Assembly: GCF_964194025.1 (NCBI RefSeq)
Contig: NC_134481.1
Location: 31,124,001-31,188,000, forward strand
Source: Convolutriloba macropyga
Lineage: Eukaryota
DNA length: 64,000 nt
Direction of reading: 5' to 3'
Part shown: positions 13,063-64,000 of the stretch, in pieces
Layout of the letters: each line of letters starts with the position of its first letter
Position numbering within the stretch: the first letter of the stretch is position 1
Made by a program: the position numbers and the translations under genes
The notes under the pieces: model-generated
What the model was told of the DNA's origin: nothing
The model's input: only the letters and a program-made list of their open reading frames with translations
The model's database searches: none

Positions 13063-13236
13063 GATGTAGCATGGTGTGGGTATGTGTTTGGGGTGATGTA
13101 ATACAGAGCGGGTATTCGTGTGGTTTGATCTAATATTGTGTGGGTGTGCCTGTGTCGTGGTGCAGTATGATGTGAATATGACTGGTGTGATGCAGTATGA
13201 TGCGAGTATGGCCGTGGTGTGATGTAGCATGGTGTG
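13063..13236. repeat. Degenerate pentanucleotide (TGNNG-like) minisatellite
   Basis: Periodic GATGT/AGCAT/GGTGT/GATGC/AGTAT units; these produce the His/Thr-rich spurious minus-strand ORFs. Confidence 0.75.
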
Positions 13237-16200: not shown

Positions 16201-16239
16201 ACTTATACTTATGATGTGAAGGGCGATACTTAGAAATTG

Positions 16240-16456
16240 ACCCCCACATCAGCCGCCCCCATTCCCCCCAATCCCCTCCCCTGCACATCGTTCAGGCCAT
16301 AAGGCCTTGTGCAGCCAAAGATCCCTCTCCCATCGTTGCCCCCCCCCCCATTGTTGCCCCCCACACTTCCCCGGTTCACCCCCACCCGCTGCGCTCACCT
16401 CACGCCCCTTCAATTAAACTAAAGCTAGCCTCACTAAACTGTGGCTAGCTACTAAT
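16240..16456 (+). repeat. C-rich low-complexity tract ending in a hairpin plus CTAA|T; possible Helitron-like 3' end
   Basis: Many C runs at 16240-16410; 8-bp stem AGCTAGCC (16423-16430) / GGCTAGCT (16443-16450), then CTAA|T. The hairpin lies closer to the end than in canonical Helitrons. Confidence 0.3.
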
Positions 16457-17088
16457 GAAGCCGACCGCTCGCCGGTTTCTTGAGAGCAGTTCGCCTGACA
16501 TTAGTCGGTTATGTTCATTTATTATGTTTTCAGCTGCTAAGAATAGTGCATTTATCTTCAGAGAATTTTTTTAAGTATTGAGTTCATATTCTCCTTAGTT
16601 TGGTAACAGATTGTGTCCAAAAGTTTAGAACAATGAACCAAATGGTTCCCAAATACACAAAAATTCTACCTCATCAGAAGTTCTCTTTGATATTAGTTTT
16701 GCTCTTTTGAACACAATATATTACAGTTTCGACAGATAAACAGAAGAACAAGGTGACTGGTTGAGTTGAAATTTGTCTTTGGAATGAATAAAAATATATG
16801 GGAAATGTTATAGAACTTCATATAAAACAGCCAGATTCTTCCGAGGGAACAAAAAATAACACTGACTTTTGTAAAGTTATTGCAATTATATAGTTTTTTA
16901 ATCTATGACAATAATGAAAATCACAAAAAGTGAATAACAGGGGTTCCGGCTTGTAGCGAACCTGGCAGAGTTGTATGATAGTTTTTGGTGAACCTAGATG
17001 GTCATCGTCAGTTTGGTCATATCTGGTTAACGATTTTAGTCATATCTTCGATTGCAATTTTTGCATTAAAATTTCAAGCTTGACAAAC

Positions 17089-17186
17089 CTGTATTGAGAA
17101 TGAGTCATCATCCACGTCATCAATGTCAATTGGTCTTCGCAGTCTTATCTCTCCACTCTTTCGCCCAATCGAGATATACGACTCAT
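17089..17186 (-). CDS. Cadherin gene exon 13 (DESYISIGRKSGEIRLRRPIDIDDVDDDSFSIQ)
   Basis: Acceptor TTTTAG, donor CAG|GTTTGT, phases 1/0. Confidence 0.88.
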
Positions 17187-44100: not shown

Positions 44101-47100
44101 ACAATTAGAAACCCTAAGAAATGTGAAATTGGAATCTGATTTATAGAGAATTTTGTGTTAGGAAACCTTAGGTAACGTGGAACAGTGGCAGTAAAGGCAA
44201 CAAGCATTAAAAATTTCAGTGGTTCAAGTTTCATAGAGCAAAGTCTAACCGTTATAAGAATGCTAGAGAACCGCGTAGACTCTCTAAATTTCTGTTTAAT
44301 AATTTTTGTTATATCTAATTTAGTGACAAAAAATTACGTAAGATCAATGCTTAGAAAATATTTTAAAACCTATGCTTAGAAATGCAAGATATTGTGAAAA
44401 ATGTGGTTACTGGCTTTGAAAAGTTCTCAGAAACAACGCATGTTTCTTGCATAGTTTTTGCGCTGAATGCCTTAAAATTTTTATCTAATTTGAGCGCTTT
44501 CACAGCAAAAATTTGTAAAAAAAATTGGACTGACTTATCTAAGTTGTCTACGCTAGTCACCGATTATCTTACATATTTTTGCCAAAATTCCTAGGGCCAG
44601 TGTGTTAATGTCAAATTGAGATAATAGTTTATATTTTAACTAAATTTATTTATCAAATTTTAAATGTAAGACTAGTTATTTTGGCCATGCCTCGCGTGCG
44701 TGCCACAGCGCTAACTCAGCGGGTTGTGGGACCTGATATGAAAAAATCACAACTGGTCATGAGAATACACAAAGGGATGATGTGTGTAATACGAACTACT
44801 AATTGGTAATGATACTATTTAACAAATACTTCGGAAGGGGATTAAATTGGATATTATGGCAATGAGTAAATTGTAATGTAACTGTATTATAATATAAGGG
44901 AAATAACATTGTTGCTCGCGTGTATCATGAAAGAAAATCCGATTGGAATTTGGGTAGTCTATTGAGGGTAATTAAAAGCCATTTTTGTTAGTAAAATCAG
45001 TTATCCTTAAACGTTTCAGTTGGTACGGTTACGTGACAATTTACCCAACTCCATTCTACTCAATGCAATTTTAACCAGGTTGCCATTTACCCAATGCCAT
45101 TTAACCCAATTTAACCCAAAAAAAAGAAACTGCCGTGCTCAGGGTTCGAACCTCTCATTTTCGACATGTCAACAAATTCTTATTCCACTGCGCGAATTCA
45201 AGAGTGCAAGACTTAATCGGATAATTGTAACGCTTTGTTTGCTCGTGATAATTTCATATCAAGTCCACGATCTGAGTTATGGTAGATGTTTTAATGCCAA
45301 AAAAGTGTTCTGCTCATAGCGAAATTGAATAATATCAATAAAACTGAAGGGTAACTTTTTAACATAATCTATGAGATTTCCGAAAAAAAATTAAATTACA
45401 AACACGGTGAAAGCAATTTAATTAAGTGAATATAAACTAAATGTAATTAAGTGCGGTGAATGCGCTGAATGCTGCTATAGACCACAAACAGTATGACATT
45501 TCACCTCTAAAGTACCGACGCAGCTCAAGTTTCTTACTTGACAGTGACACTCCAAGAACTGATGGAAGCAGTGTCGAAGTTGATCTCATCTTGACTCACA
45601 ATTATACATCCATTCTCCCCATTCACCACGTCAAGTGTAGATGTACACGCTGGCACGCATGTTATCCTGCAAACAACAACGGTGGATAGAGGAACTTTGT
45701 ACAACTTTTGGAAGAAATGCGCTGATTTGAAAAAGTTTTATCAGCTCAAAGTTTTTACCGAGAAAGGCACTGCTTCAATCCGATTGGGGCTTAAATTGTG
45801 TCAACACGATAAACTTTAGTAAGCAATGTGCCGAAAAAGCAATGTCGTTTCTTCTCTTAGAGTCGTATTAAACAGTCACCAAAAGTCATAATTGAGTCAT
45901 GAAAATTGAATTGAAATCAATAATAGCCCTTCCCGGGTCGAGGTGTCATCGCCATTCAACACAAAATTATGTAAGATAAGCGGTGAATGCGAAAAATTTT
46001 GTAAGATAAGCGGTGAATGCGGAGAAATTACATAAATCAGGCGGTGAATGCGGTGAAAAAAACCTTTATCGCCTGGTAGCGGTGAAATTACATAAAATCA
46101 CCGCTTTAAAAAAAGTGTCCAAATTATGTAAGATAAGCGGTGAATGCGGTGATATTACATAAATTCGCAGCTTGACTTAGTGGTGAACTTACATAAATTC
46201 ACCGCTTAGAAAAAAGTTAAATTTTTGTGAGAACAGCAGTGAATGCGGTGAAAATACATAAATTCACCGCTTAACTTTGTGGTGAAATTGCATAAATTCA
46301 CCGCTTAACTTAGTAGTGAACTTACATAAATTCACCACTTTGAAAAAAATTGTCCAAATTATGTTAGATAAGCGGTGAATGCCGTGAAATTACATAAATT
46401 CACCGCTTAACTTAGTAGTGAACTTACATAAATTCACCACTTTGAAAAAAATTGTCCAAATTATGTTAGATAAGCGGTGAATGCGGTGAAATTACATAAA
46501 TTCACTGCTTAACTTAGTGGTGAACTTACATAAATTCACCACTTAACTTAATGTGAACTTAAATAATTTCACCGCTTTTGAAAAAAAGTGTCCATATTTT
46601 GTAAGATGAGCGGTGAATGCGGTGAAATTACATAAATTCACTGCTTAACTTAATGGCGAACTTACATAATTTCACCACTTAACTTAGTGTGAACTTACAT
46701 ATTTTCACCGCTTTGAAAAAAAGTGTCCCTATTTTGTAAGATAAGCGGTGAATGCTTACATAAATTCACCGCTTAAATTAGTGGCAAACTTACATAAATT
46801 CACGCTTAGAAAAAAGTGTTAAAAATTTGTGAGAATTGTGAGAACAGCAGTGAATGCGGTGAAATTATATAAATTCACCGCTTAACTTAGTGGTGAAGTT
46901 ACATAAATTCACCGCTGAGATGAAAAGTGTTAAAATTTTTTTTAAGAACAGCAGGAGCAATATGTAAGATACGCGTATGTAATTTCACCGCTATATATTT
47001 TAGCGGTGAATTGTGGTGAATTTTTGTAAGATCACCGCTTATTCTAGCGGTGAACTTGCATAATTTCACCACAATCACCGCATTTCACCGCAAAATTATG

Positions 47101-50100
47101 TACAAAAATTGCGGTGAAAAAACTAACTTTTCACCGCTTATCTTACATATTTTTCCAATTTTTTTCTCGACCCGAGTTACTATCTCTAGGGGGCGGCTGT
47201 TAAACAGTTAAAACCGTGAAAAAAAAATTTAAAAACTCTATCGCCAAAAAATGAGACCGATAAAAAAGACAAAAAAGCATTCTTCTCACTCAATTATGCT
47301 AATTTTTTACCGACTCATTTAATATTGATTATCTTAAAATATACTATATCTTTAGTTCTTACGAGCACTCGAGTGGGTCCAGTCCATTTGGGTTATATGC
47401 GGCCACAGTGTACAAGGCAGTGTAGACTCCTGGCTTGGTCTCATCTTCTGGAATTGACACTGTGGAGGGAGGGGTCAACGGGTTCACTGGATTGGCCCCA
47501 TCTGAAATTCAACAGAAACATGAAGCATCTCACTTACAATAGAGGTTTTTGATTCTGACTCTTCATTAAAAGACAGTAGCTACACAACTTAACGCCATAT
47601 TTATGGATGGAAACGAAGCCAAAACGAAAGTTAATAGATCTTGATAAGAAAAAATATGAAACAGGTAAATGTTGCTAAGATCATGACGTTGCAAATGGTG
47701 AAAAACGTTAAGATTTGTACGATTTTGCAAGATCTTAACATGGGTACAAAGAAAAAAAATCTTGGCAAGATATTCCAGAAAGCTAAGCCACGACAGAGTC
47801 AGACATAGAATTTTCAAAACCAAACATCATCTTTGAAGAAGATTTAAGACGAAATAATAAGTTTTAGCAACAAATATCAGCAATCATCAAGAAAAGTCGG
47901 AAAATTGAGCTGGGGTTAGTTTGATATCCAGCAATATAATTTACGTTTTCCAGTAAAATTTTGTAAGTGATGCAAGCTAGTTATATAGATAGTACATAGC
48001 TTGTGCAAGGAAGCCAGAATGCCCCATGAAAAAAAACTATAAAAAAGTATAAAATTATTCAACATCAGACTAAACAAAATTGTTCATCAATGAAAATTAT
48101 ATTACTTATATTTTGAAAGTTATTCACAACTAGTATAATCTTTTAATATGATCTCCAATAATATTACTTTTAATTCGAATGTTATTAACAGCTACTATTA
48201 TCCGACGGCCCACTTAACGGGTGTTGTATTGTGTGGATTGTTGAACTCATTTTCTTCCGAATGAATGGCAAATACGTTGCCACATATTTGAGAATAAGTA
48301 ATCAAAAAACAACAGGAATACTCGATAAACTAGGTACCGATCTACAATGCTCATTAGGTTTTGTTGGACAGTGTTTTGGGGGCTCCAAAACTTGCTGTTC
48401 TCTTCACACTAATGCGCCAACAATTGAACTAATTGAGGTCATGAAATTTTTTGACAACTTCCAAGGAGAGACTTTGGAGCATATTGTCTGAACAGTTATT
48501 TTCAACCACGCTTGGCAACAGGCACGCCTCCCAATTAATGTATCAGGTATAGGGTTAAGACCATCTCAACGTCAAAAGAATGCTGCGTACGCGGGACCCC
48601 TTCTAGCGTCAAATGATTTGTTATATAAATCACAGGTCAGTCTCCGATAGAGGAACTTACTTTTGCTGCACTATACGAAAGCTTTGATACTTTTGCGTTG
48701 ACTATATTTAAACAAAAAAATCGAAGAGAGCGTAGATCTCCAGAAACTTTCGTACCTGAAGGAAGATCATACTGCAGTGAGGGAAAAGGCTAGAATTGAG
48801 TCGCTGCCTCTTTCACAAGCGTATGGGTAGTTGCAGCTCCTATACCTCCTCTAGGTCTGTGTTTATGCCCTAATGAATTTGGAGTGACATACTTGGTATC
48901 AAAAATAACAAATTTGAAAGGAAATGCCCTGATTGTGCTTCGGACTCTCTTGATGTTTTTGGCGACTGTTCTATCGTATGTCAAGGAAAGAGAGACGCCA
49001 TTGCAAGACACGACAAAATTTTTGACCGGGTCGAAACAGGTTCTTCAACAGCTAACTTATCTTGAGTGGTAGAAAAACGAAACATTATCGCTGATAGCAA
49101 TTCCCGACCGGAAGGCTTTTTCTGCCTTCATGGACGTCCAGCAGGTCTGCTGCTCTTGATGTTGCGAACTCTTTTCTGCAGCCAAACATTATAACAAGCG
49201 GCTGAGAAGTCAGGTAACGCAATTGATGCAGCTGAGGTCCGAAAGTCCAAATGTTCTCAGCAAGATATTACGTTCGTGAGATTGGCAGCAGCAGTATTAG
49301 GTGGTATGTCTACAATTTTCAGGAATGCATTAAAACAAATAGTCTCTCATTTTCAGACAGTTGAGCCGCTTAATCGGAAAGGGATTTTCCTTTGCTTTCG
49401 ACAGATGCGCTTTGTCTCTCTCAGTAGTTGTAATTCGTGGGTTGCGGTAATGTTGGTTGCCCGGGCGTCGTGGGACTTTTGAATGTCTAGCGAGAAATTT
49501 ACGCTCACCATAGTAAAGTGAAACTTCCCAAATTCGTCTAAATAGGGAATAAAAATATCATATTTAATCACGAGTTTTACCTGACAAAAGTGGAGAGAAT
49601 AGAAAAAACTTTTCATGTGTGAAAAATGAAATGGATTGATAAAAATAGATTTTTTTTTCAAATTGTTGATCTGCTGTTTTGATGAACATAGTCGTTGTAA
49701 TCCAGTTAATTGTTATTTCAAGAGTACTTAGGGATAAATTAAATGACAACAGAAATGGCTGAATCTGGGAAACATTAAAAAAAACTGAAGTGATACTTTC
49801 AACTGTACTTATAACTTTCCTAATATAATTTCTACCCAATCAACGAGATTTCAGTGATTGGATTTGTTGTCCAAGTATTTAATAATCTTCATATTGTTAC
49901 TTCAAAAAACTCCTAATTGTAAGATTTAACTATGGGTAACAGGCTAAATGCCTAAGTGGCTCAAATTAGTACTAATAGATAAAAAACAGCAGCATTTAAT
50001 TAATTTATTACTTTGATTTTGAGGAAACTGAGCCCCTTAAAAAATTGCTTTAATTTATGAAAAGAGCTATGTTTGATTTATAAAGTTTTAGTAAGCAACA

Positions 50101-50546
50101 AACACTGAGTGCTTTAGCGAAGTATATTAATGAACACTAAAGCATTATAATTTTATATTCAGTATTGATTTTGGTTCTCAAACTCGTTTCTTTTGATCAA
50201 AATTTTTGGTTATTATTGCATGTATTATTATCGCTACAAACCTTATTATTGCAACCAAATTATCGCATATCTTGCCGACTCTCTGTTCTTTTGCAAGATA
50301 CACAAGATGTGCAAAAGCAAACAGTCTGTTTTTGAGGTCTTGCAAAAACCATCTGCAAGCAAGACTTCTTTTGAAAGACTTCCAGATGATAGCCTGTTTT
50401 CGCGAGAGATGTAAAAAGTCGGTCTGATTTCGCAATAGTCTTGTTAGATCTGGCATGATAACCGGATCACCTTGGCTAGAGCTCTTCACAAACTAACCTG
50501 TAACGTGGATAATGACCCCCAACAGCAACAGCATCAAAACTGGCAT
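17089..50546 (-). CDS. Multi-exon cadherin-repeat protein (signal peptide plus at least 6 EC domains; 13 exons, 674 aa recovered; 3' end not located)
   Basis: All 13 exons join in frame with matching phases and AG acceptors. 12 of 13 donors are GT; the donor after exon 9 is GG. Cadherin motifs: VSIPEDE, TGVNDERPYF, DPDND, MDYDD, QNLNDLP, INARTGDLCLNSQIDYE, IDDVNDERP, VTDPD, ISATDAD, SGEIRLRRPID. Confidence 0.92.
17915..18047 (-). CDS. Cadherin gene exon 12 (ITEVTAVNTLITTISATDADYP...FYYITG)
   Basis: Acceptor TTGCAG, donor CAG|GTCAGT, phases 0/1; follows a 13-kb intron. Confidence 0.9.
18491..19117 (-). repeat. Copia 3' LTR (627 bp)
   Basis: Direct repeat of 22643-23263; preceded on the minus strand by the PPT-like GTGGGGG (19118-19124). 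Confidence 0.96.
19120..22586 (-). pseudogene. Copia gag-pol pseudogene lacking most of the integrase
   Basis: ORF fragments 21894..22586, 21421..21897, 21118..21399, 20627..20938, 20382..20588, 20121..20375 and 19428..20066. Confidence 0.92.
22629..22642 (-). promoter_or_regulatory. Primer binding site GGTTATGGGCCCAG (copia-type, internal fragment of initiator tRNA-Met)
   Basis: Exact motif immediately after the terminal CA of the 5' LTR. Confidence 0.92.
22643..23263 (-). repeat. Copia 5' LTR (621 bp)
   Basis: Direct repeat of 18491-19117; plus strand reads TGTTGG...CTAACA; abuts the PBS. Confidence 0.96.
24960..28010. repeat. Two old direct copies of a 1.1-1.3 kb repeat (about 24960-26330 and 26905-28010)
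   Basis: Collinear shared blocks: GGGTTCATGTTCT, GCATAA(A/G)GATG, AGAAGAAGAGA, ATCGT.CCT.TCATT, GGTGAAT.TGAAGCAGAAT, GTTGAGGGCAA. Confidence 0.75.
24997..25320. repeat. Minisatellite, about 41-bp unit (GTTCTAAAATCCGGTTTTATGATTAGAACTACCGG-like), about 8 copies
   Basis: Recurring GTTCTAAAAT...GAACTAC motif with about 40-bp spacing. Confidence 0.85.
28095..29900. mobile_element. Dispersed repeat with an AAACAAGG plus hairpin terminus (Helentron/HINE-like), copy 1
   Basis: Terminus AAACAAGG, hairpin ATGTGC-gatg-GCACAT and GTTCCGACC; homologous to 39558 onward and to the reverse complement of about 39000-39293. Far boundary is approximate. Confidence 0.5.
30340..30812. repeat. Dispersed repeat, inverted partner of 35667-36180
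   Basis: GAGTATATAGTTC..GGTCGGAACAA at 30774-30813 is the reverse complement of TTGTTCCGACC..GAACTATATACTC at 35666-35706; the match extends about 450 bp. Confidence 0.8.
31074..31187 (-). CDS. Cadherin gene exon 11 (ITIQATDGVNTVTSYVWADILSSNDITPVL...PT)
   Basis: Acceptor TTACAG, donor GTTAGT, phases 0/0. Confidence 0.9.
31763..31881. mobile_element. 119-bp MITE with TIR CCCGGGTCGA and TA target duplication
   Basis: TA|CCCGGGTCGA ... TCGACCCGGG|TA, with internal GCGGTGAA/TTCACCGC motifs. Confidence 0.85.
31970..32253 (-). CDS. Cadherin gene exon 10 (DGQTAILTITIDDVNDERP...VTDPD...DSYK)
   Basis: Acceptor CATCAG, donor AAG|GTAAAC, phases 1/0; lies within ORF 31859..32284. Confidence 0.92.
33065..34670. 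repeat. Direct repeat pair of about 450 bp (33065-33510 and 34215-34670)
   Basis: Shared AATATATTGTTACAGGTTTA, TTTTCACTTGAGAATTTT, GATGTAGGTGGTGTTC, TAACCACAACTGGTATAATTTTC and GCTTGGGCGAATAAAGGTGTTTTTCC. Confidence 0.88.
35028..35328 (-). CDS. Cadherin gene exon 9 (VEAYDDGG...INARTGDLCLNSQIDYEQNQEYVLTVNVVRD...NIP)
   Basis: Acceptor TTTTAG, phase 0. The 3' boundary is inferred at CCAG|GGATAA (non-canonical GG donor, phase 1), so that coordinate is less certain. Confidence 0.85.
35392..35436. repeat. 45-bp palindrome (21-bp arms, one mismatch, 3-nt loop)
   Basis: TCATTTTCTGCCCTAAAAGTG-GCA-CACTTCTAGGGCAGAAAATGA. Confidence 0.9.
35667..36180. repeat. Dispersed repeat, inverted partner of 30340-30812
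   Basis: Reverse-complement similarity to 30340-30812, including GGTATCA.T.GAAAGCTCGTC.AGCG.AGAA.ATGGA.TTAAAA. Confidence 0.8.
36700..39950. mobile_element. Two opposed copies of the AAACAAGG-terminus repeat family; the left copy has internal 300-370 bp tandem units
   Basis: CCTTGTT at 39287-39293 and AAACAAGG at 39558, with arms that are reverse complements for several hundred bp. AACGGCTT(T/C)GACACC.GTTTT-like motif recurs at about 36935, 37575, 37940 and 38610. Outer boundaries are approximate. Confidence 0.55.
40587..40759 (-). CDS. Cadherin gene exon 8 (GSAVADYIGACEI...LQVTDWADP...VEVVVE)
   Basis: Acceptor GTTCAG, donor GTCAGT, phases 1/0. Confidence 0.9.
41321..41451 (-). CDS. Cadherin gene exon 7 (YIVRDGWSGSLARVECLDPD...SAT)
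   Basis: Acceptor TTGTAG, donor GTAACC, phases 2/1; the upstream intron is 88 bp. Confidence 0.9.
41540..41694 (-). CDS. Cadherin gene exon 6 (VAMRSLEVYLRVSD...VNIQNLNDLPLICYSSVVR)
   Basis: Acceptor TTCCAG, donor GTAAGT, phases 0/2. Confidence 0.9.
42223..42320 (-). CDS. Cadherin gene exon 5 (GEDAKFFKLSTDQ...AVEMDYDD)
   Basis: Acceptor GTTTAG, donor GTAAGA, phases 1/0. Confidence 0.9.
42801..43018 (-). CDS. Cadherin gene exon 4 (IDDSG...VEITGVNDERPYF...DPDND...YWLE)
   Basis: Acceptor TTATAG, donor GTAAGA, phases 2/1; overlaps ORF 42742..42990. Confidence 0.92.
43190..44600. repeat. Older degenerate relative of the GCGGTGAA/GTAAGAT MITE family
   Basis: AATTATGTAAGAT..AGTGAATGCG at about 43203 and TTATCTTACATATTTTT.CCAA at about 44564 parallel the two ends of 45932-47176. 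Confidence 0.5.
44672..44706 (-). mobile_element. Helitron-like 3' terminus (GC-rich imperfect hairpin, 7 nt, then CTAG|T)
   Basis: Minus strand reads GTGGCACGCACGCGAGGCATGGCC-AAAATAA-CTAG|T. Confidence 0.45.
45118..45198 (-). repeat. tRNA-derived SINE-like head (Pol III A and B boxes)
   Basis: Minus strand: A-box-like GCGCAGTGGAA, about 30 nt, B box GGTTCGAACCC, then a T run. No complete cloverleaf. Confidence 0.45.
45538..45666 (-). CDS. Cadherin gene exon 3 (ITCVPACTSTLDVVNGENGCIIVSQDEINFD...VTVK)
   Basis: Acceptor TTGCAG, donor GTAAGA, phases 2/2. Confidence 0.88.
45932..47176. mobile_element. Expanded MITE (TIR CCCGGGTCGAG) whose interior is a tandem array of palindromic GCGGTGAA-N10-TTCACCGC units
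   Basis: CCCGGGTCGAG at 45932 and CTCGACCCGAG at 47166. Repeated GCGGTGAAATTACATAAATTCACCGC-TTAACTTAGT units; a higher-order block of about 120 bp is nearly exactly duplicated (46321-46440 vs 46441-46560 region). Confidence 0.88.
47363..47501 (-). CDS. Cadherin gene exon 2 (DGANPVNPLTPPSTVSIPEDETKPG...LECS)
   Basis: Acceptor TTTCAG, donor GTAAGA, phases 1/2, open frame. Confidence 0.88.
48190..49482 (+). mobile_element. 5'-truncated, decayed CRE-type non-LTR retrotransposon (RT thumb, Zn finger, restriction-like endonuclease) in cadherin intron 1
   Basis: Conceptual translation across frameshifts gives FDNFQGETLEHI, AWQQARLPINVSGIGLR...NAAY, EKARIESL, APIPPLGLCLCPNEF, CPDC..LDVFGDCSIVC..ARHDKI, SRPE..LPSW..AALDVA, AIDAAEVRK and VMLVAR, in the order typical of CRE-clade proteins. 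Confidence 0.8.
50498..50546 (-). CDS. Cadherin gene coding exon 1 (signal peptide MPVLMLLLLGVIIHVT)
   Basis: ATG at 50546, hydrophobic 16-mer, donor G|GTTAGT, phase 1 matching exon 2. Confidence 0.8.
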
Positions 50547-51304
50547 CTCGTTTCCGAACTCTTTCCGTTTCCCAATTCTGTTGTTCTGGTTCCAATTTTC
50601 CAATAAATTTCACTCGGTAAATTTTGATGCAAAATAGAAAAGTTATTTGTGGTTATTGTTTATAACTGCTTTTGTTCTACTCTTTTATTAGTTGTTCAAA
50701 AAGTACTCATCGCAAAAGTTTGCTTGCGTGCGTTCAAGACAGCTCATTTTTCATTACAGAGTAGTGTGATTCCGACCGTGTTTACAACACATAAGTTTAT
50801 ATCTAAGTTTATCTTACTTTTAAACGTTTGTTTAACTGTACATTAGAAAAGGTTTGTGAATTTTGGTTTCTTATATTTTTGAACTAGAGCAATTTTGAAT
50901 TTGATGTTTTTCAACAATGACGTCAATGTTGTTTGGCAAATGGCTCTTGTAACCTGTCTTCAAAATGACACTTAAGAAACTGTGAAGATGAAAACAAAGA
51001 CAAAACACAAAAGCTCGGTATTTTTCGTTGAATGAAGTTTCTGATTTTCAATTTTGCTCACTTTTTTCAAAAATGTGAAACACAACTTATTGTTGTAATG
51101 GGTATCAAGGATGACCAAATTACTCTGACTGTGATCAGAAGGTAAAAAAATGATAATTTTTTCTTACCCCTCAAAATTTCCCAAAGGGCTTCAACTCTGA
51201 CTATGGATTCCAGAACTAAACTGCATTTAAATGACCATCAAATTGTTGCGTTCCTGGAACCCCTAAAAATTTGATTGATACCTTTTGTAAAGTTTCTAAC
51301 TAAC

Positions 51305-51638
51305 TGTGTTATAGCAGTAGAAATACTGGATGTATACCTCCAGCCAATCAGAGACCGAGAAGACACTATTCTCTTATATAAAGCGCATGCTGCACTAACT
51401 CTAGTCAGTCTGTTAGTTTAGATACACCATGTGTATACTCTCAAATCCGGTGCTGTCTTGTATTACCACTGTATTAAAATAAGTTTATCTTCAGTGCTTT
51501 ACAGAGTCGGTTTTTCTTAGAGATATAAGTAAGCCTAATTCACGCGCAGAAATAAGTAGCCCTAGCTCTTTATACCTTAAGGCTGTAAAAGGAGCCCACA
51601 AAGGGTCTGCCTTAACTGATTCGGCCAGTGAATTAACA
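51305..51638 (+). promoter_or_regulatory. Putative 5' LTR / promoter of the gypsy element
   Basis: Starts with TG; CCAATCAG (about 51344), TATATAAA (about 51375), TCAGT initiator-like sequence (about 51405); candidate end TTAACA at 51638. No partner LTR or clear PBS to confirm the limits. Confidence 0.5.
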
Positions 51639-53099
51639 AACTCTAACCGTAAAAAGAACTCACACGAAACCCACTATTCTTTTTTGAGAAAAAGACTTAG
51701 ACCTAGTTTATATAGTCTTATTTTTTTACACTTAAAATTTAGAAAACGGGAAAGACAATGCCAACAAATAATTTAATAAGTTACATAACAACACTATTAT
51801 TAACAAAACGAGCCGTCACACTGGCCAAACGTCATCCAGATTGGACACACATTCCGACAAATTACAATTAGTTGTTCTGGCACAACAGAACAAACGTCTA
51901 CTGCATAAAATTCTACCATTTAAAATCGCACATTATAAACAACAAGATGAACTAAACCTACTTTTAAACACAGCAAAACTAATCAAATACAACTATTTTG
52001 CAGTAGAGCAACAGCTATTTTTCTGTTTGCCAGATAGAGCTTCACATGTCTCACGAACAGCTTTCCTGTCATATTTATCGGAACTCAACTCAAAAAAGGC
52101 ACAATTCTTGAGCTGGTGCATTTAGAAAATCTTTATTTTTTGGAATTCAGAAACAACTAGCGTCAACACTAAATACCGCCGCGTTACTATCACACAATCG
52201 CTTGACAAGATATTTAGGGTTTTGATCATCTTATAAAGACGTACATAAGTTCCGTAAGGGATGCAGATTTACCGGAAGCCTTCACACATTTATCTTGGCT
52301 CATACACAAATTATTGAAAAGTTAAGAAGGACACATTTTTTCAGCAATAAAACTCATAGCAGTGAAACTCCCTCAATTAATGGATCAATTCCAGAAACAA
52401 AACACTTCCTTTATGACCCAAATTGGTTTTCAGAAAATTTTGTAACCATCACAGAAGTACCGTCTGAAATTATACAAGAAGTTACAATTAAACAAAGTAA
52501 TTTTCAAATTAAAAATTAAAATTCAGGAAATCAACCATTTACATTCACAAACATTACAGGAGACATAAATACATCCATAGAAGCATCACCAATAGAAAAC
52601 ATTGATACTCTAGCCCATTCACGATCAAAGGATTCTAATTTAAACGAAACCTCAGAAACAGACTATAATTCCACACTACTAGATGATGGAACACTTTTTG
52701 CATAACACACGCTTTCACTGAATGATTTTCAAAATAATGACAACTAAAATAATGTTAACGAGGTAGGTAATGATAACAATAATATAGAAATTTTTCTGAA
52801 AACCATAGAAACAGACAATCTGTGAATTCAACCAAATTAACACAAAATTTGGATCAACTAAGAATAACTCTTGAGCTAATCCCATATATAAATACATCTC
52901 ACGCTTATAAGGCAAAATTCAGTACCGTTTAACACTGAACCTGTCATTTTAAATACATCAACTCAACCAGCATCAACAAACAATCAAATTATACGATGAA
53001 CCCCTCAACAATTATTAAATTTTGTCAGACAATTTAATTCTCAAAATACTCAACAGACAAAAACGCTCCAAACCCTAACTATTTGACAGCAGCGTCTAC

Positions 53100-56000
53100 A
53101 CAAATACCTTCGACGGTAGTTAGAGGAAACAGAAATGATATATCCCTATTTAAGCGGTTCAATATCTATACAACAGTCTCTGAATCCGTCTGATGTTACT
53201 GTCTCCACATACACCACACAAGATTTTAAAATTAGTTAAACGCTATCACAGCGAACATGGTAATGACAGCAGGACCCGTACAAGTCGATTCAATTTTTCT
53301 TGAAGCATGAATTCTTCAACGAAGCGCCATGATACAAACAGCTTCAATTGACCCTGCACAGCAACGGTATTCAAGTTTATCGCTAGAAGTTAAACAGATC
53401 TGGCAAGCGTTTTGCAAAGAATTTCAAAACATCTTTGATAACAAAGAAATGCAAACACAAGCGAGACTAGTTTTAGAAAGCATAACAAGTGCTTCAGGAG
53501 GACAAATGAAGATCGATGTTTGAGAAATGCATAAATGAATCATGCACTTGTCAAAGCACTAGATCCACAACTAGCAAGAGTAGCTCTTAAAAAACTGCTC
53601 ATCAGAAATCACTAGCATTTGAAACACAGCATCCACTCGGACAGTTGGACAGAAAATACATCAAAAAGACATCACCAGAATGCATATAGCTGAATATAAA
53701 ATAAGCGCAAAGTCCATTCTTTCATCATCTTTAAATAATATATCTTTGGATAAAATAATCTCAGAGTAAATGATGTACGCACTACGGAACAAGATTTTGC
53801 ATATGGGATAACCGTTGTACAGCACAAGTACTCAAATGATTCAAAAATTTTGGTGAAATCACTATTCCTTTAAACACAGTCTTTCCACCTGCCCCGATAC
53901 AAAGTACATAAAACCACTTGACAAACCTAACTTTCAAAAGCAAACTTTTAATCAGGCAATGAACGGAAAACAGATCTTCCCAAATAATTAAATCATATCA
54001 AATTATATGACTGGTAAACAATTACTATTTCCTTACCGCTCAAGGAGCAGTATTAGAGAAAATCGAGACTGTTCTCGACACAGTAGCCTCAATATATCTT
54101 CATTTCCTAATTTCAAACCGTACTATGGAACCACCAATATAGCTGTAGACGACCAAGTAGAACGAGTTTATCATACCCGAGACAACAAAATTTTAACGCA
54201 GTAACTCTACTTAAAAAAAGAGAGTCACTGAACATTGTCTTAGACGCCCGTCAACTAAACACAATGATTGACGAAACTAAATGTACTTGGCCGATAGAAC
54301 CAATACAAATTATACTCACACGGATAAAGGGACCCCATTTTTTAATAGCTGGCATGAACAGCGCATATAACCAAATGCCATTAGGTAAACCCTCACAACG
54401 ACTCAAAAAATTATTTTATTGCGGGACAGCAATACTGTTTTAAACGATTGTTTTATGGTTTCTCTATCGACCTAGCCGCTTTTCCATCTTTCTTGACCAT
54501 TATATGTTAACCACTAATTCGTCAAAACAATGTCATCACGTATCTTGACGATGTATTCCTTTAAAATACCACAACAGACACAAAGATAAAAACTTTAGAC
54601 AAATTTGATAAAATTCTCATAACTGAAAACCTCAAAGCCGCTGCAGACAAGTTTTCTTTAGAATCAGTAAAATTTTTAGGACACCAAATCCAAAAAAACA
54701 TATACAATCACTTAAATCCAAAAAAGATAGTTTTAGAAAGCAACAACCACCTAAAAAAAGTACTAAACTTTGTTGGATTTTTAATATTTAACTCAAAATG
54801 TATTTAGAAGTTACAAGTAATCCTGAGACCCTTCTATCGAACTTAGAGATACAGTAGATTTTAAATGAACACTAGAAAAACAACAAACTTATGACAGCGT
54901 TAAGAAAGAATTCAAAGACGGCAAATTACGTTTTGCAATTTCTAATTCAGAAAAACACTTTTATGTTTTATGTGACGCCTGAAACTATGGCAACGGAGCA
55001 GCACTTCTTCAGAAAAATCAATTTGGAAAAACAAACTTGTTTTCGCGAACTCTCGTCTGTTTTCTACCACAGAATTCAGACTTTCAACCATTTTCCGATA
55101 ATGTGCTGCAATAACTTTTGCACTTTCGAAATACCTATGCCTTTTTCATGGGTCACAACACAATAATGTTTTAGATACTGACCATCAAACAATACTTTTT
55201 TATTCTCGCAATAGAAGAAACCAAATCACAGAGTTTACGAGTTTCAAATCATCATAATGAAATTTCCAAACTTAGATATGGTCTGCATAGAAGCAAAGAA
55301 CTTTTCACTTCCAGGCCTATTAAGGTTTTCACTCGCGACGACAACACGGTATGAACATCGTCTACAGACAGTCAAAATCCCTGATTGATTGAAAACCTTT
55401 ATGACTCATATCCAACAAACACATCTAATACAGTGCCACTATGCGCTGTCAAAAGAATTTATTAACACAGTAATTCCAGACACTGCTGTAGAGTCACTAC
55501 ACCTTCCTGTATATCCCAAATTAAAATGTAACTATTTCAAAGTACCACTAGAAAACAATCTCTATCATTCTGTCTCATACCACGATTATAAAAAAGCACA
55601 ACCGTTAGAGCAAGTGCACCACCATTAAATTCAACAGTTAACACAAAATCACCAACTCTCGAAACCCACCCTCAAATACAACACTCAGATGTTACACTAA
55701 ACATGAATAAAACAGAGCCTTTTACTCTCAAAAATAAACTATGCTGATCTGATAGATAGCATAAAATTTTCCTATCTCGCAAATTGATGATTCCCTACCT
55801 AAATCACCAGATTTATACAATTATTTTAATGACGAACAAACACAAGTCACTGGCAAATTTAACAAGCAACACAATAAAAGACCCTTTTTTTGACAAAGCT
55901 TTCTTTGGAAACAATTCAAAAATCGTCTTACTACTCCTAGTTTAACAATCAGAACAAATAAAGGAATTTTGCACTACTATAGACATTTCCAAGTTTTTGC

Positions 56001-56494
56001 GTAAACGAAATCAATCATTTTTAAAATTATCTCGAAGAGACACAATCGCCAAACATCTGTTTACTTTTTTCAGTTCTATTAACAGTATTTCATATTGCAC
56101 ACTCACACGTTCCTTCAGGCCATTCCGGTCGTGAAAAAAACCATTCGACAATAACGGAAAATTATTTTTTTCCAAACAAAAAACATGGATAGCAATAAAT
56201 ACACAAGTTTGCTGGAATTGCCAAATGAGCAATTTAAGGCCGAACCTCATTGCTCCACAAAATTCATTTTTTGGAATTTCATCATACTTCGACACCGTTT
56301 TTCAATGAACACAAAAAGTCCAATTTCTCCGTCTTCAGACGGAAACTTCTACGTCTATGTTTTAGTAGACGCACTTACACACTAGTTTGTTCTTCACCCT
56401 TCCCCCTGAAATGATGCAACAAAAGCATTAAATGTATTATTAGGCTATTCGATAGTCAAACTTCGGATTATCTGATACTTTAGTGACTGACAAT

Positions 56495-56496
<2 letters not shown>
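53100..56496 (+). pseudogene. Gypsy gag-pol pseudogene (protease and RT N-terminus apparently deleted; integrase truncated)
   Basis: Motifs as listed for the element. Only about 300 bp separate the gag C-terminal region from the RT LDAR motif and no aspartic-protease motif is visible; many stops. Confidence 0.85.
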
Positions 56497-56559
<63 letters not shown>

Positions 56560-56613
56560 ATATCCATTGTCAGTTACTAAAGTATCGGATAATCCGAAGA
56601 TTGACTATCCGAA

Positions 56614-56663
<50 letters not shown>

Positions 56664-56680
56664 ACATATATATATATATA
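56448..56680. repeat. (TA)n microsatellites with a 50-bp inverted duplication
   Basis: (TA)n at 56497-56563 and 56615-56680; 56448-56496 and 56564-56613 are near reverse complements. Confidence 0.95.
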
Positions 56681-59256
56681 AACCACTATTATAACACAAA
56701 AGTTTACCTCTCTTACTTTAACTAGCCAAGCAAAATTTAGCATATGCTCTAATTACACCTTAAATAGAAAGCCATTACAAATATAATTTCCCAGTTCTCC
56801 CACACGAAGGGGATGAAGATGATAACTCGGGTAGTTCTTTCACACCTCTTCCCTATAACACAATTATTTTCACTGAGAAAAATAACAAAGCTTATTGACT
56901 AAGCTAACAAAGAATGCGGACTATCCTTTCACCTGCTACCCTAGCAAAATCACAAAAACCCCTCCACCAGGAATTGGAAAAGAGGGAATTACAGGCCATT
57001 CCGCAGGACAATAAAAGAAAGTAAATTAACTAAAAGTTAAGTTAGAAGCCGACCCAGAGACCGGTCAGGCAATAATTGCCCAATCTAATGTCCTTAAACA
57101 GATATAACTTCTTAAGTTTTTTTCATCAAGAAGAAAAGTAGTGGTTAGACTGAATCACATCGTCTAAAAACACTTCGCAGCCCACCGTGCTTACAACTGA
57201 GTTGTTTTTCTTGCTCTCTCTTCTTAATTCAAAATTTGCTTGAAAATTTTCACTCATACCTCTCTCAACTCTTTATCAACTCTCAACATCTTGCTTTTGA
57301 AAGCCTCCTTTCTCAATTTTGCTTTGTAACTTGGAAAAACGTACTAAATTTCTCCGCTTTCACTCTGCTTTCTCTCAATAACTTGAAAGGTCTGTCTCAC
57401 TGCCCAGTGTTTTCAGCCACTCACACCACCGCAACTGAACCCAGACCAATCAACAATACAAGCTGATAAAACTCACAGAAGCACACACTATATCTCAAAT
57501 TACTTCTTTCAGTCTGACAGTATTGAAAGTTCATGTTTTCAACACAAAAGAGAAAGGTATGCAAATAATTTCACAACATAGACTTGAATTGTTGTATCGT
57601 ATGACTCCTTACACTGTTTTTTTAAATATATTCAAAGTTTTAAAACAAAACAGATACGTTTTCAAGATTTTTCTATAACATATACCACATTTGTGGATAG
57701 GCTTTTCAGATGAGAGAATTTAATAACGAACATACTGCTATCTTTTTTCTCCCAATCTTTTCACCACAAGCAACACAAGCAAAGTTCAGAACTTCTTTAC
57801 ATTGATATATTTCATACAAAAAATCTGGACGCTATTCCAGCTTCTTACGATACGATATAAAATGAATTAAGGAACTTCTTAAGTAAGATGAACAATATCA
57901 ACAACTCGAAAAACTGCAACCTGCATTATAACGCTGTAGATCCACACGTCGAAGAATTGTTAAGAGTTTTCTTGGCTGATTTTTAAAATCTCATCTATCA
58001 TCACAATGTCCTCCCACCAGATTCAACTTTCGCACCAATTTGAGTTAGTATTTCTACTTTACATTTAAAATTAATTGTAGTTCTATTTTCAATCATTGTA
58101 AAATATTCTATTGTGATCACTGCCCTACTCTGTGACAACAATTAACGTCACAATTGCTTCATCTATTCAACACCCAGCACTAACCCGAGTGCTCCCCTGC
58201 CCCAAAGCAACCAAGTTACTCATACAGTGACTCAACCAAATAAACCAACCCCAAAAAGTCATCATTTAAACTCTTTAAAAAAGTCACAAGCGCAAGAAAC
58301 CGAAAAACATTCCTACTCGGTCGTTACTACTGCCAAATCTTCAGATAGACATCATTCTACTGGACACCCCCCACTTTGTCCCACAGACAATACTCGGGTA
58401 CCCGCCTATCATATTCAAACGCAAGTACACCAAGCGCAAACACAACAACAACAACAACAACAACTAAATACACAAACTTTATTGCCGTACTCAGGCTTTA
58501 TTGCAAATGCAACTTTACAACAACCAAACACAACTTATACTCGTTCCACCACTAGCACCACAATCGGAGTTGATTAATTATTTGAACACACCACAATTAG
58601 TTACTCAAATAATAAGTTTTGCCAACGCTAATAAGACGCGTCACAAGATATTAGTCTTTTTTCAGACACTTCCACTTCTGATCCACTTAGTTCTGAATTA
58701 ATTAAATCAACTCAACCACAGATTGCAAGTCATTAATTTAGTCCACCACATGAACCTGTAAATAATTTTGACCGTAAATTTTCACTTGGTTACTGGAATC
58801 ACTATTATATATTCAATTCATCACCTTCTTTTCAATGTTCAATACCCACTACAACTTTACCACTAAAATCTGACCCAAAATTTGCAGTACCCTTTTCGGA
58901 GAGCACAATAATGGTAAACAACTATATAATTGGGCAAAGCAAAACATTACTAAATCCTATAAGATTTATTCAGTACAAAAACAACGAGCACACAATTTGC
59001 TAAAACAAAAAAAATCGCTTTCCCTCGAAAAAAACTGTAGTCGAACAAGAAAAATTAACCTCTCCGCTGCCCCGACTAATTTTCGTGTTAACTGAAATCC
59101 GTCACCCTTTATTTGTCAAGAAATACACTACAAATTTGACAGATACACAAAGAACACCTCAGGTTAATTTGTTTTCTATAACACTCACTCTGGACACATG
59201 ACAAATACAAATTCAATCATACTCCTAATTCTTTTATTCTGTGTACACCCTAACCC

Positions 59257-61500
59257 ATGAAACAAGCAATTAAAACTGAGAAACGTACTAATTCCACTCT
59301 CAAGTCTGGAGTTCAGGACCTGATAGTAACTCACTATTATTGCTGCTCACACCATATCACAAATATGCAGTATTATAAGCTCATAAGATTGGCGAAAGTA
59401 AGATCAAACCAGCAGACTTTCAATATCTCCTTGCCCAAGTATCCATCTTCTCACAAAATCGAAAACTTCAACTACGCGCATACGCCATACATGCAAAACT
59501 CAGCGACAAAGAAAGCTTTAGTCACAAATCCCACTTAGGTGAGGCTTCCGGGTTGATTACGGTAATTGGTATGTTAACGAAATGGAAACACAATTATTCC
59601 CACAGAAATTGATGCTCGTAGGGATCTTGCACGCATTGATCTTATAAATAAGCAAAATTATCACCCACAGTAAATAAAATATGATTTAATTTTTGATTCA
59701 CATTGGCAAGCTAACGTTGAAGCCAAGCAAGGCGGCTTCCAATTGCATCGCTACCGCATTTAGCATTCCGGCGCAGAACTCTTTCATATAATCCAAGGGA
59801 TCACGATTGGATCCCAAACGCCACAGATAATCCTTTAACTAACTGCCCCGGCAAGACCCAAAACTCGAATATCATTTCATCAACACACTAGGATGGTCAC
59901 TTCAATTAACAATCATCACGCTTAATTTTTACGTAAAACTGAAAGTATCGGTAAAAGACGCATTAAATGTAATCTAGAAACAGGGTATTGTTCCCCCAAT
60001 CACGTTATTAAAACAACAGTCATTTGCGAAACATATGACCATTTTCGCGTTTTTTGATGTCAGAAGATCACATGCACGAATTATAAAATTTCATAAACGC
60101 TATTTTATTGAAACACTCACAAATAAAGAAAGTAACATTGGGAACAAAAAAATGCACACATGTACACAAGTTGTGTTCAAGACCACCTATATGATGAATC
60201 AGTACATGCTCGTTTTGAGATACTCATTAAACTTCTTTATAGAAGAGGATTGATCTTATTACGAAATTCAATGCCAATATATTTTTGTACAATATCACGA
60301 TAGCTATAATATTGCTACGGGCAAAGCCTCTCAGGAATTTAGGGATGTACACATGACAATCCCAAACAAAGCAACTTCTCTCACACCTTCCACTAAATCG
60401 GACAACCGCAATGGATATGTAATCCCACAGGAATCATAGTTTATCGCAAACCTGAAAACAATGAAGTCTTTCGAAAACAGGACTGGTTTGGAGCTGTACA
60501 TCCTAACGTACAGATAGACGCAAAGCCCGACTAAATGATTGGTTGTGTATTACTTGAGTTGGACCACACGAGTACTACAATATACAAAAAACTCTGCGAT
60601 CTTGTGGCAATTTAAAACAAACCGCCTTCATACTACTAACTCAAAAATTTCCCATTAGTAGGATATTTTATCGCACGACAGCAAAACACACTCGCTACGC
60701 TAAAAAACTCTAACGCTATCTCTGTTTTTCAATTTATAACTGTTTTCTCAGCACTTCATGTGTTAGAAAACCAATGTTTCGAACGCATCCCCATATTTTT
60801 ATCGGAACAAACTTCAATTTTTAGACCAAGTCACACTTAAATCTTTTCCTTGTTCTATTACAGCAACATGTAAAGCTAAAAAAATTGATCAGCAAACATC
60901 ACTCAATTCAGAGGGCGATGAGACATACCGCTTAACGCCTTACCCAATTAAAGCGCAAAACTCCGTTAAAGTTTTCACACCTCACGATGTTGATAACCGC
61001 TTCACCCACTCGGACTTCATTGCAAAAGAACTTGGCATTTATAGCCAAATAGATTGGACAAATTCAATAGATAAAATTAAATTTAACCCACTAATAGATG
61101 ACGTCGCTGAAAATTTGAAGTAGAACAAGCTGTTAGCTTTGCAGATCTTGCAAAACAAGTACAATTACCAGAACAATTCTAACAATTACAAAACAATACA
61201 CGATTTTTTTAAATGAACTCTTTATTAATGGAAAAGTATTTACACTTCGTCTTCTCGATTGGCTTGAATTAATCAAAGGCAACGATTTAAAAGAATCCTT
61301 CAGAGGAATCTTTGGATACCTCTGGTAGGTATTAAAAGAATTAGCCATAATATGCACTGTTTTTAAATTTTCACAGTGCTTATTTGGACAATTTCGTAGC
61401 GCATTTATAGCATATGATCTTAAACCAATTTTAGATCCTAATATCACACTAGCTAATATAATTGCTTCCGGACTTTTTGGAGTATTTTCACGAATCATCT
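59257..61500 (+). pseudogene. Env-like fusion glycoprotein pseudogene (class III, chuvirus G / herpes gB-like Cys pattern)
   Basis: LIVTHYYCCS..TNMQYYKL (about 59320), CNLETGYCSP..TTVI (59968), KKLCDL (about 60590), NQCFERIPIF (about 60770), ATCKA, and a C-terminal hydrophobic segment FRGIFGYLW.VLKELAIICTVF (about 61300). Confidence 0.65.
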
Positions 61501-62917
61501 TCTATGTGTTACAATCAGACTCTTCTGAATATAAATCACACACACCGCACTCCACACTCACAAAATGAATTGAACGTAAAACACAGAAGGTTTAACAATC
61601 TCTTTAAATATTTTCCTCTCCTGCACACAAAAACTCTAATAAACATCGAGCTTCTACTCTGCCCATATCTAATTATGAATGTTACGGCCTCCGAGTAGAA
61701 TCTCTACAAAATTTCTGATTTTCAATCACTACATTTACACGTTTTCCACTCTAGTAAACGCAAACGCTCACAAGCTATATCATTTTTTAAAGACTCTTTT
61801 GAAGATGATTCTGATTATCAGGACAACTCTGAAAAATTCATTTTAAAACTACCAAGTAGTCGTATCCGACAATCTTCTATTTTAGCAACAACACAGCTGC
61901 CAATCCCGGTCCTCAAGACTGAGTTTAACCTCTCCATCCTAACGTCAATCCCACAGCATATTATCTTATTATGCTGGACGTTGACGATATCCTGCCATCG
62001 CACTCGCACCCAGGGTGCTGTCTCCTCCATTATCAGAACCAGTGTGTGAAATGCAGACGCCGGCCCTCTTCACAAAGGCCAAGGCTCCCCCCAGAGCACC
62101 AGCATATGGACTTGGCCACTCACGGTCGGGTGAATCCACTACCTTCACCTGCGACTCCTTTCTCATCATCAGGAGAAATCCATTTTTATATCGAGAGCGG
62201 CACAAGCTCACCAATGGCACCAACAGGACCACTGAGTGCATCACAAGAACTCCTATTACAAGGGCAACAGCTGGTTCCACAGCTACCACAATCGTTGCCA
62301 GAGTCACCACAAACCTTCTAAACGGTTCAACAGCCATCACCACTGCCCCCACACAGTTCTTCTTGGTATGACGAAGTTGGCACTGAAACACAGGACGCTC
62401 AACACCCAAAACTCTGTCAGGATTGGCGGCCCTCACCCTCGTTCACGACCACTCACATACCCAGCTGTGATGCCAACACCCGTGTTAAAGCCCATGAGCA
62501 TTCACCAATCGAGGTATGGAATACCCACAGTCCCTCCACCGACCTCAGTTATATTTTCCTCAAACAAGAATCCTTCACCAAGGAGGCACCCCAGAGCTAC
62601 GACGCACAAAATCTACCCTGCATGATCATCGCCGATTCAGGATTCACAGTCGCCTGCTCGCTACACAGCCAGCCCACAAAGAGGCTCAAAGCCCTCATCC
62701 TCCAAATCAAGATTGAATCCTCTCACTCTCACACAAGGAGTGTTGCACAGAGCACCTGGCCAGAATTTTAAGTTTCATCAGTTCATGAATCCTCTGGGCA
62801 TCAACACGGATCACGATGTTTGTGTCCCAGAACGGATCAATTATGTGGCCCAACTGTCTTGTCACACATTGAAACCAACGACCAGCTCATCTTCACTAGG
62901 ACACCTCAAAAAAGAGT

Positions 62918-63595
62918 TTGTGGATGAAGGACGCGAAAAATCCCACCTGCCAGGGTACCTTCATTTCCCCATCAATCCACAATTCACGGAGAGACTCAGG
63001 CATCTCCAAATACTTCTTCGCTCTCGCCTTTCGTCAGAACGATTATCTCAATACCATGTTCAAGAGAGATATTGCCCCCTATCGTATTTACCAGAAATAC
63101 GACTCCTTCTACCTTCAGTTTTGTTTTTGGCATCCAACACAAATAGGTGTAATTAACCAAACACACAAAGTAAATCGGACCAAGATGTTGCATAATATCC
63201 ACAACTATCCCTTTGTTCAGCATCACTTGCACAGAACGAATCCCTTGATTCACATCATTTCACGCCTTCAGTACGTCAACACCATACTCACTTCGCCCTA
63301 CTACCATAATTACAACTGCATCATCAACCCCAACTACTGTAAAGGCACCATCCAAAATTTTGAACCAATCAAGAACTATTTCCTGTTTTTGCAACTCTCC
63401 GTGAAGACTCATCTCCTGATACTTGATCCTATCGAGTACCTCCGGTGTGTAGAAGGAGGAGCCACGAAGCGCATGTATGAGCACAACTTCAAACACTTCT
63501 ACAGGGACCGGATAGTGGACAAGTTGGCAAACCACGAACCATCAGCCGAAGAATCGCAAATCCTCAGTAATCTCCTGGCTAAGTTTCAGACGTAG
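62918..63595 (+). CDS. 225-aa ORF of unknown function, probably the surviving part of a longer mobile-element accessory ORF
   Basis: Long open frame with protein-like composition; the same frame continues upstream with two isolated stops; no motif recognised. Confidence 0.35.
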   Translation: MWMKDAKNPTCQGTFISPSIHNSRRDSGISKYFFALAFRQNDYLNTMFKRDIAPYRIYQKYDSFYLQFCFWHPTQIGVINQTHKVNRTKMLHNIHNYPFVQHHLHRTNPLIHIISRLQYVNTILTSPYYHNYNCIINPNYCKGTIQNFEPIKNYFLFLQLSVKTHLLILDPIEYLRCVEGGATKRMYEHNFKHFYRDRIVDKLANHEPSAEESQILSNLLAKFQT

Positions 63596-64000
63596 GCCAC
63601 AGTCCTACAATATTGGGCTCACAGACCCACAAAACTCAGACTCACTGTTCTGAAAACTCACAAACTGAAAGTTTAAGTGAATAGGTAGCTCACACAAGCT
63701 AAAAGTCAGATTGTCACTAGAAGGTAAGCTGGTAAACCCAATCGGATCAACCCCTGTACCAGATGGAGATAAAGAGAAATCTTCTTGTACAACCGACAGA
63801 GACTACAGGCTACAAGCAATCCTTCAACTGGGAACAAATCCCCATCACATGAAATCAGAGACAAATGGGTACTTTGACAGGACTGACGATACTGGCCAGT
63901 ACATCCTGTAATTGGCACCTTCACTGGTTCAACAATTGAGTGGACTGCTCACTGAAGACACACGTCAACACTCTACTGGCAGGAACTTCAGAGGACGGCA

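Follow-up and report, generated by a model that had tools for sequence, protein, structure and literature searches.

A decayed Ty3/gypsy-like retroelement with a predicted class III envelope gene and likely accessory genes in Convolutriloba macropyga

We analyzed a 64,000-nt stretch of Convolutriloba macropyga DNA (NCBI RefSeq assembly GCF_964194025.1, contig NC_134481.1, positions 31,124,001 to 31,188,000; hereafter the window, which has a GC content of 35.8% and whose own numbering is used below). On its forward strand the window carries a decayed copy of a Ty3/gypsy-like long terminal repeat (LTR) retroelement, with its 5' start at about 51,310 and its 3' end beyond 64,000, in which gag and pol remnants are followed by a degraded envelope gene (env). 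The whole element measures about 14 kb, and the unassigned frames beside env may be accessory genes of a complex element.

To place the borders and estimate depth, contigs of three public sequencing runs (X1, X2 and X5) were placed on positions 47,000-64,000; four public runs from one study contain 81-84% of the sampled words, and no RNA data set was listed as containing them, a result without bearing on expression. Piled-up loose contig ends (167 in X1 and 164 in X2 at 51,312; 107 and 109, respectively, at 51,614) delimit a 5' LTR of about 305 bp on the + strand, which begins at about 51,310-51,312, ends at about 51,614-51,616, and includes a TATA-like box at 51,375 and an ATTAAA signal at 51,473. 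A primer-binding-site-like stretch, placed by its position right after the LTR end (51,617-51,630, +), differs at two positions from most sister copies, and the 64-kb window holds no tRNA gene with which to compare it. At the opposite end, a 3' untranslated region (63,596-64,000, +) reaches the edge of the window, and records X1-2, X2-9 and X5-18 pass from 63.7-64.0 kb sequence into LTR sequence, which would put the 3' LTR outside the window at about 64,120-64,130 and give this copy a length of about 13.1 kb instead of 10.4 kb. The element therefore does not stop at 61,700, as the original prediction had it, but runs past 64,000, with sister contigs placing the 3' LTR at about 64,125.

Every part of the element is multi-copy in X1 and X2. 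Summed X1 depth reaches 13,117-27,198 in the two LTR bins, compared to 246-3,124 in internal bins and 30-33 in the unique flank, so that LTRs far outnumber internal parts, depth not being a copy number. Because 6,646 of the 13,261 X1 records on 47,000-64,000 are less than 90% alike and only 685 are at least 99% alike, this copy is old and the family diverse.

The coding region opens with a decayed frame on the + strand (ORF1, 51,758-53,990), likely gag, that comprises an N-terminal domain, a low-complexity linker and a capsid-like part; a WxxFxxxFxxxF motif lies at 53,401-53,436, Pfam gives Retrotrans_gag at E 0.094, under the cut-off, and a PDB sequence search with the gag piece returned no match. 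Next comes the remnant of an aspartic protease (54,030-54,190, +; D-T-x-A-S motif at 54,077-54,091), after which about 1 kb is deleted, including the rest of the protease, a spacer and the start of the reverse transcriptase (RT); residues 1-351 of the relative P0244 and 1-330 of the relative P0058 have no counterpart in the window. In both relatives the protease is separated from RT by some 200 additional residues (~70-270 in P0244); this spacer looks dUTPase-like, but that reading was dropped when no family matched in Pfam, PHROG or NCBIfam.

The RT and its connection (54,195-54,900, +) are broken, retaining LDARQLN (54,240-54,260), MNSAYNQMPL (54,354-54,383) and YLDD (54,541-54,552) with the motif A aspartate substituted, and align to P0244 with 70.7% identity over 215 codons that contain three stops and three frameshifts. 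When 82 residues of the RT served as query, 45 relatives were recovered among 67 candidates, all of them ENA records (146-652 aa, 57-82% identical). Relatives match RVT_1 in Pfam, and the RT signature that had been singled out as unusual is indeed family-wide (LDARQLN, ADMNSAYNQ, RLFYGI) and not a product of decay. A broken ribonuclease H (RNase H) of Ty3/gypsy type follows directly (54,900-55,260, +), with CDA at 54,971 and TDH at 55,177; the window frames match RT_RNaseH (E 3.6e-4) and RT_RNaseH_2 (E 1.3e-3), both under the cut-off, and P0058 matches RT_RNaseH_2 at E 1.3e-18 with CDAS and REC motifs present. Beyond a segment defined by position, for which Pfam gave no family match (55,260-56,050, +), lies a broken integrase (56,051-57,170, +) recognized from its motifs (CxxC at 56,210, LVDA at 56,362, TDNG at 56,486) and from Integrase_H2C2 at E 0.0033, under the cut-off; its core is interrupted by (TA)n runs and by an inverted duplication (56,451-56,609; 95% over 160 nt). 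A one-frame query spanning pol yielded a single distant and irrelevant match. The pol motifs quoted in the original prediction were all found on the + strand and in the expected order, and motifs and Pfam matches give the order protease, RT, RNase H, integrase, with the protease as a remnant; from the proposed succession of gag, RT, RNase H and integrase the last three thus stand, and gag is indicated more weakly, by the Retrotrans_gag match and the WxxFxxxFxxxF motif.

About 2 kb after the integrase lies env (59,198-61,866, +), a decayed gene for a fusion glycoprotein predicted to be of class III and to resemble chuvirus G and herpes gB, delimited by its full-length alignment to P0014 and measuring about 2.67 kb where 2.2 kb had been estimated. 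It has a signal-like start, an ectodomain, a membrane segment and a long tail. In a frameshift-aware alignment that goes beyond a chance resemblance, residues 1-911 of the 911-aa P0014 are covered with 60.9% identity over 878 codons, at the cost of 6 stops and about 19 frameshifts. The env motifs reported earlier are all present on the + strand (HYYC at 59,332-59,343, CNLETGYC at 59,968-59,991, KLC at 60,589-60,597 and CFERIPI at 60,775-60,795), and the C-terminal hydrophobic segment was located at about 61,330-61,500. Searching with one env frame (stops as X) returned 6 relatives among 1,414 candidates (E 1e-85 to 6e-32), and the relative clusters include uninterrupted proteins of 881-911 aa; in P0014 and P0015, which are 99% identical to each other, env is uninterrupted, and P0014 has a hydrophobic membrane segment at residues 720-742 and 12 ectodomain cysteines. 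Neither a whole gag nor a whole pol was seen among the relatives. With RT, integrase and env all broken and about 1 kb of protease and early RT deleted, the window copy is dead, as had been proposed.

The class III assignment was made from natural relatives of the window env and not from the window frames, which (stops as X) had no Pfam match. P0014 matches PF24664 (Monjiviricetes_fusion) at E 8.9e-15, above the cut-off, as do the distant env relatives scanned (17/17, made up of 16 at 23-32% identity plus P0160, with 2/17 matching below the cut-off). A PDB sequence search with env found no match. A model of the P0001 ectodomain built from a 40-row alignment (predicted local distance difference test, pLDDT, 69.5; predicted template modelling score 0.53) contains a 46-residue central helix that includes the KLC motif. 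When this model was compared with the PDB by Foldseek, herpesvirus glycoprotein B (gB) accounted for 34/34 of the matches listed (best E 7.8e-11), and against a viral library the best matches were chu-like, xinmo- and qin-related glycoproteins (E 2.6e-22 to 2e-19; 11-14% identity). Similarly, VIA-align ranked gB entries 1-5 (Z 8.8-6.5), followed by unrelated coiled coils, and superposed pseudorabies virus (PRV) gB domain IV with a Z of 7.9 and a root mean square deviation of 4.2 over 159 residues. These Pfam, Foldseek and VIA-align results for the natural relatives point to a predicted class III fusogen that is closer to chuvirus-type G than to gB, in agreement with the original suggestion of a chuvirus/gB-like and not an F-type envelope. 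Full-length PF24664 glycoproteins that are 23-30% identical to env also occur on ENA/NCBI contigs of 3-13 kb (P0123, P0132, P0141, P0155, P0174 and others).

The association of env with this pol extends to other copies on the indirect evidence of contig sizes: 4 of the 22 env-bearing contigs equal an RT-bearing contig (n = 47) in exact nucleotide count (38,938; 24,469; 138,474; and 15,779 nt), where 0.006 would be expected by chance. In a quick, unrooted env tree built without named reference rows, a single long branch with a support of 100 unites the close env relatives and P0083 (30% identical) and sets them off from 15 distant PF24664 proteins. The existence of this distant env and of a distant RT relative, P0058 (46% identical), suggests a long residence of the lineage, with the two being separate records whose pairing in one lineage is an assumption. 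A further record, P0037, is an RT fragment that runs straight into sequence matching window positions 58,904-58,960, which suggests a sister copy that has lost a large internal stretch.

Env is flanked by long frames on both sides. Between pol and env, orfX (57,720-59,198, +) is a long decayed frame, likely an extra gene, with 9 stops in 493 codons, one hydrophobic stretch (58,026-58,139) and a middle rich in Ser/Thr/Gln/Pro; its region has multi-copy depth, and no Pfam, PHROG or NCBIfam family was found at a useful E. In a stop-codon test it contained 10 stops vs 29 and 30 in the other frames, a number as low in 1/200 shuffles. The test covered 18 regions, missed the known coding capsid (140/200) and integrase (171/200) and flagged the LTR/leader (3/200), so the orfX value is a lead only. 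Downstream, the post-env region (61,968-63,595, +; possible accessory gene or genes) holds frames at 61,968-62,771 (1 stop in 268 codons) and 62,900-63,595 (0 stops in 232 codons), for which the same test was weak (23/200 and 10/200 shuffles) and for which Pfam, PHROG, NCBIfam and PDB gave no match and the Atlas nothing at or above 0.9. Proteins of other copies (P0144, P0147 and P0177) run past the end of env into 61,872-62,778, which indicates that the post-env DNA is part of the element; since the frames of P0147 differ from the window's long frame, that record speaks for membership in the element and not for coding. The idea that the post-env frame encodes an SGNH/GDSL protein was set aside for want of a family match in Pfam, PHROG or NCBIfam. 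We regard orfX and the post-env frames as likely, though not proven, accessory genes. Our best guess at candidate functions is that orfX, given its one hydrophobic segment, may help with membrane processes or particle release, and that the post-env frames may act in regulation or counter-defence.

While the original prediction presented a class III env in a gypsy element as undescribed, such elements have already been published across animals. In the available portion of a recent survey (Chary and Hayashi, eLife 2026, PMC13524379), 221 of 1,512 Ty3/gypsy elements that bear an env are of the HSV (herpes simplex virus)/gB type, in cnidarians, ctenophores, tunicates, nematodes, flatworms, bryozoans and arthropods, and a chuvirus-like BEL/Pao glycoprotein lies beside a gypsy pol in 114 elements, so that the core idea is already in print; an ancient acquisition is preferred there to recent independent capture. 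Like these HSV/gB-type ancient errantiviruses, the element described here has the order LTR-gag-pol-env, a Ty3/gypsy-type RT and RNase H, and a gB-like env of class III that includes a signal segment and a membrane anchor, and is multi-copy in an invertebrate. It departs from them in the roughly 2 kb that separate integrase from env and contain a long extra frame, in the 1.6 kb of long frames downstream of env, in a total length of about 14 kb, and in the some 200 additional residues that its relatives have between protease and RT. The first filter of the survey, in the portion available, did not let pol and env lie further apart than 1,000 nt, but was extended more widely by hand for some groups. 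No acoel is named in the text and supplements to the extent that these were available; within the same limits a text search found no mention of accessory or extra ORFs (open reading frames), six family peptide motifs had no match in seven supplement files (which may hold no protein sequences), and the table gave no match to an 11-letter primer-site motif.

Other known systems share some of these features. Anakin elements (Dezordi et al. 2020, PMC7642597; partly available) are LTR retroelements that likewise use a chuvirus-like class III glycoprotein as env, and differ in having a BEL/Pao pol where the pol here is Ty3/gypsy-like. The glycoproteins of chuviruses, jingchuviruses and xinmoviruses (PF24664) and herpesvirus gB resemble the env in predicted fold and cysteine motifs and as the best structural matches, but are only 9-14% identical, and the gene here resides in a retroelement and not in an RNA or DNA virus. 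Gypsy-like LTR retrotransposons of bdelloid rotifers (Rodriguez et al. 2017, PMC5408684, in the part available) also carry additional ORFs, along with a dUTPase domain and small membrane proteins; in contrast to the present element, they have an env that resembles paramyxovirus F and extra ORFs for GDSL esterases or DEDDy nucleases, and no esterase or nuclease family of the bdelloid type matched the extra frames here in Pfam, PHROG or NCBIfam. A literature search that missed most subscription papers found no description of this family, and related loci were absent from viral, JGI metagenome and prokaryote collections, with no phage match. This is apparently an unnamed new family of Ty3/gypsy elements that bear a gB-type env, in which the pairing of env and pol is known and only the likely extra genes look new.

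Taken together, the LTR, the broken pol and env, the many diverged sister copies and the uninterrupted env ORFs in other records are what was observed, and they are very probably explained by a dead copy of a Ty3/gypsy-like LTR retroelement that is repeated in the genome and has a predicted class III env, likely a member of a host-restricted family of gB-type 'ancient errantiviruses'. Several points weigh against this explanation. The Pfam matches of the window frames for gag, RNase H and integrase all lie under the curated cut-offs, and none of the 45 RT relatives offers an uninterrupted full pol, all being fragments (in a search that covered proteins up to 2,000 aa). The single-sequence model of P0001 reaches a pLDDT of 31, and global TM-scores of the P0001 model to gB are low, at 0.24-0.26. 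The linkage of env and RT comes from contig size matches and not from DNA that was read, and 18 of the 22 env contigs lack an RT match. The P0058 RT scores best against Ty3 (113.7 bits, with 83.6 for foamy virus, 82.5 for cauliflower mosaic virus and about 35 for human immunodeficiency and murine leukemia viruses), and the RT family profile again puts Ty3 on top (96.5 vs 72.8 and 62 bits), but these ranks use eight solved structures and are no phylogeny. Moreover, Ty3/gypsy itself is poorly monophyletic (PMC12440569, in the part available), and the available part of the Chary and Hayashi set mentions neither a 2-kb gap between pol and env nor additional frames.

A second explanation, which we consider unlikely, is that the element belongs to a deep LTR retroelement branch of its own, beside or outside Ty3/gypsy, as a complex endogenous retrovirus bearing accessory genes that captured its class III env independently. 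The odd RT motifs are family-wide, neither the 45 RT matches nor the close env matches include a named element, and the viral, JGI metagenome and prokaryote collections hold no such locus; the single long env branch with P0083, the extra protease-RT residues of P0244 and P0058 and the frames beside env could be read in the same way. Set against this, both RT and RNase H have their best scores with Ty3/gypsy, and published gB-type env groups are just 18-32% identical within a phylum (PMC13524379, in the part available), which makes the divergence seen here ordinary. A long branch would also be expected from a fast-evolving host, and the env tree is quick and unrooted, with no named rows.

That env is instead an endogenous viral element of chuvirus-like type, or belongs to some other element, and came to lie inside or beside a gypsy copy by accident is very improbable, even though about 2 kb of unassigned DNA separates it from the integrase, glycoproteins of negative-strand RNA viruses are its best fold matches, and the GC content of the post-env region is higher (44-51% vs 35%). 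Strand and skew remain constant throughout, no second LTR or repeat boundary occurs inside the element, sister proteins (P0087, P0144, P0147 and P0177) span both env borders, and sister contigs attach the 3' end to the same LTR; the contigs common to env and RT relatives, along with these shared LTR joints, argue against an accidental neighbour. The least probable reading, a BEL/Pao element of the Anakin type or a relative of loki-, Odin- or foamy retroviruses, is largely refuted: Anakin has a chuvirus glycoprotein (PMC12440569, in the part available) and foamy Pol ranks second or third among the structure matches, but Peptidase_A17 is absent from the element and its RT relatives, yet detected by Pfam in the unrelated BEL element of the window (5,845), the RNase H after RT retains acidic motifs and is no degenerate tether, and lokiretrovirus env is F-like and Odin has no env (PMC9040795, in the part available). 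Two further candidates were discarded, Troyka, which is defined by the lack of an env gene (PMC12440569, same part) where this element has one, and the insect errantiviruses, whose env is an F-type class I protein and not, as Pfam and Foldseek place it here, of class III.

The rest of the window contains other repeats and host genes. Just upstream of the element, a high-depth X5 contig skips 2,996 bases (47,501-50,498), which suggests a low-copy insertion of 3 kb that splits another repeat; short frames within it at 48,800 and 49,195 have no Pfam match. A satellite-like array of very high depth occupies 45,940-47,180, with units of about 34 bp in 102/136-bp higher-order repeats and its last part inverted. 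A decayed BEL/Pao element lies at 1,938-8,307 (+; Peptidase_A17 at E 1e-31, integrase-like frames), a decayed copia element at 19,428-22,649 (-; RVT_2 at E 1.6e-11), an MFS transporter gene with a single ORF of 534 aa at 8,975-10,579 (-; a second record is 98.6% identical), and cadherin-like exons at 31,859-35,328 (-; Cadherin at E 9e-8 for the 34.8-35.3 kb frame). The cadherin domain, the MFS transporter and the BEL/Pao and copia elements together indicate that the window is animal DNA, and its composition would suit an acoel, judged by the GC and LTR content published for acoel genomes (PMC9911081).

If the dead copy descends from a gB-type Ty3/gypsy family, its intact ancestors would, from what is known of Ty3/gypsy families, have been transcribed from the 5' LTR, reverse transcribed inside Gag particles with a host tRNA as primer, and then integrated. 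Env would have been a membrane-anchored trimer able to fuse particles with another cell, probably a germ line cell reached from the soma, if Drosophila gypsy is taken as the model; Chary and Hayashi (PMC13524379, in the part available) state that cell entry via gB-type env is unknown. The window copy itself is incapable of this cycle.

More ambitiously, the element may represent a lineage of complex endogenous retroviruses, 14 kb in length, from an animal group not yet surveyed, with its own RT clade, a chuvirus-type class III env, at least two conserved accessory genes flanking env, and recently active members, a proposal that we advance tentatively and hold to be doubtful as a whole. Accessory genes in gB-type env Ty3/gypsy elements are not described in the papers found, and the family would matter more if the frames flanking env are conserved genes, as accessory genes mark complex retroviruses. 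If the host phylum is absent from the published survey, this family would also provide a test of the proposed Pre-Cambrian origin of gB-type env.

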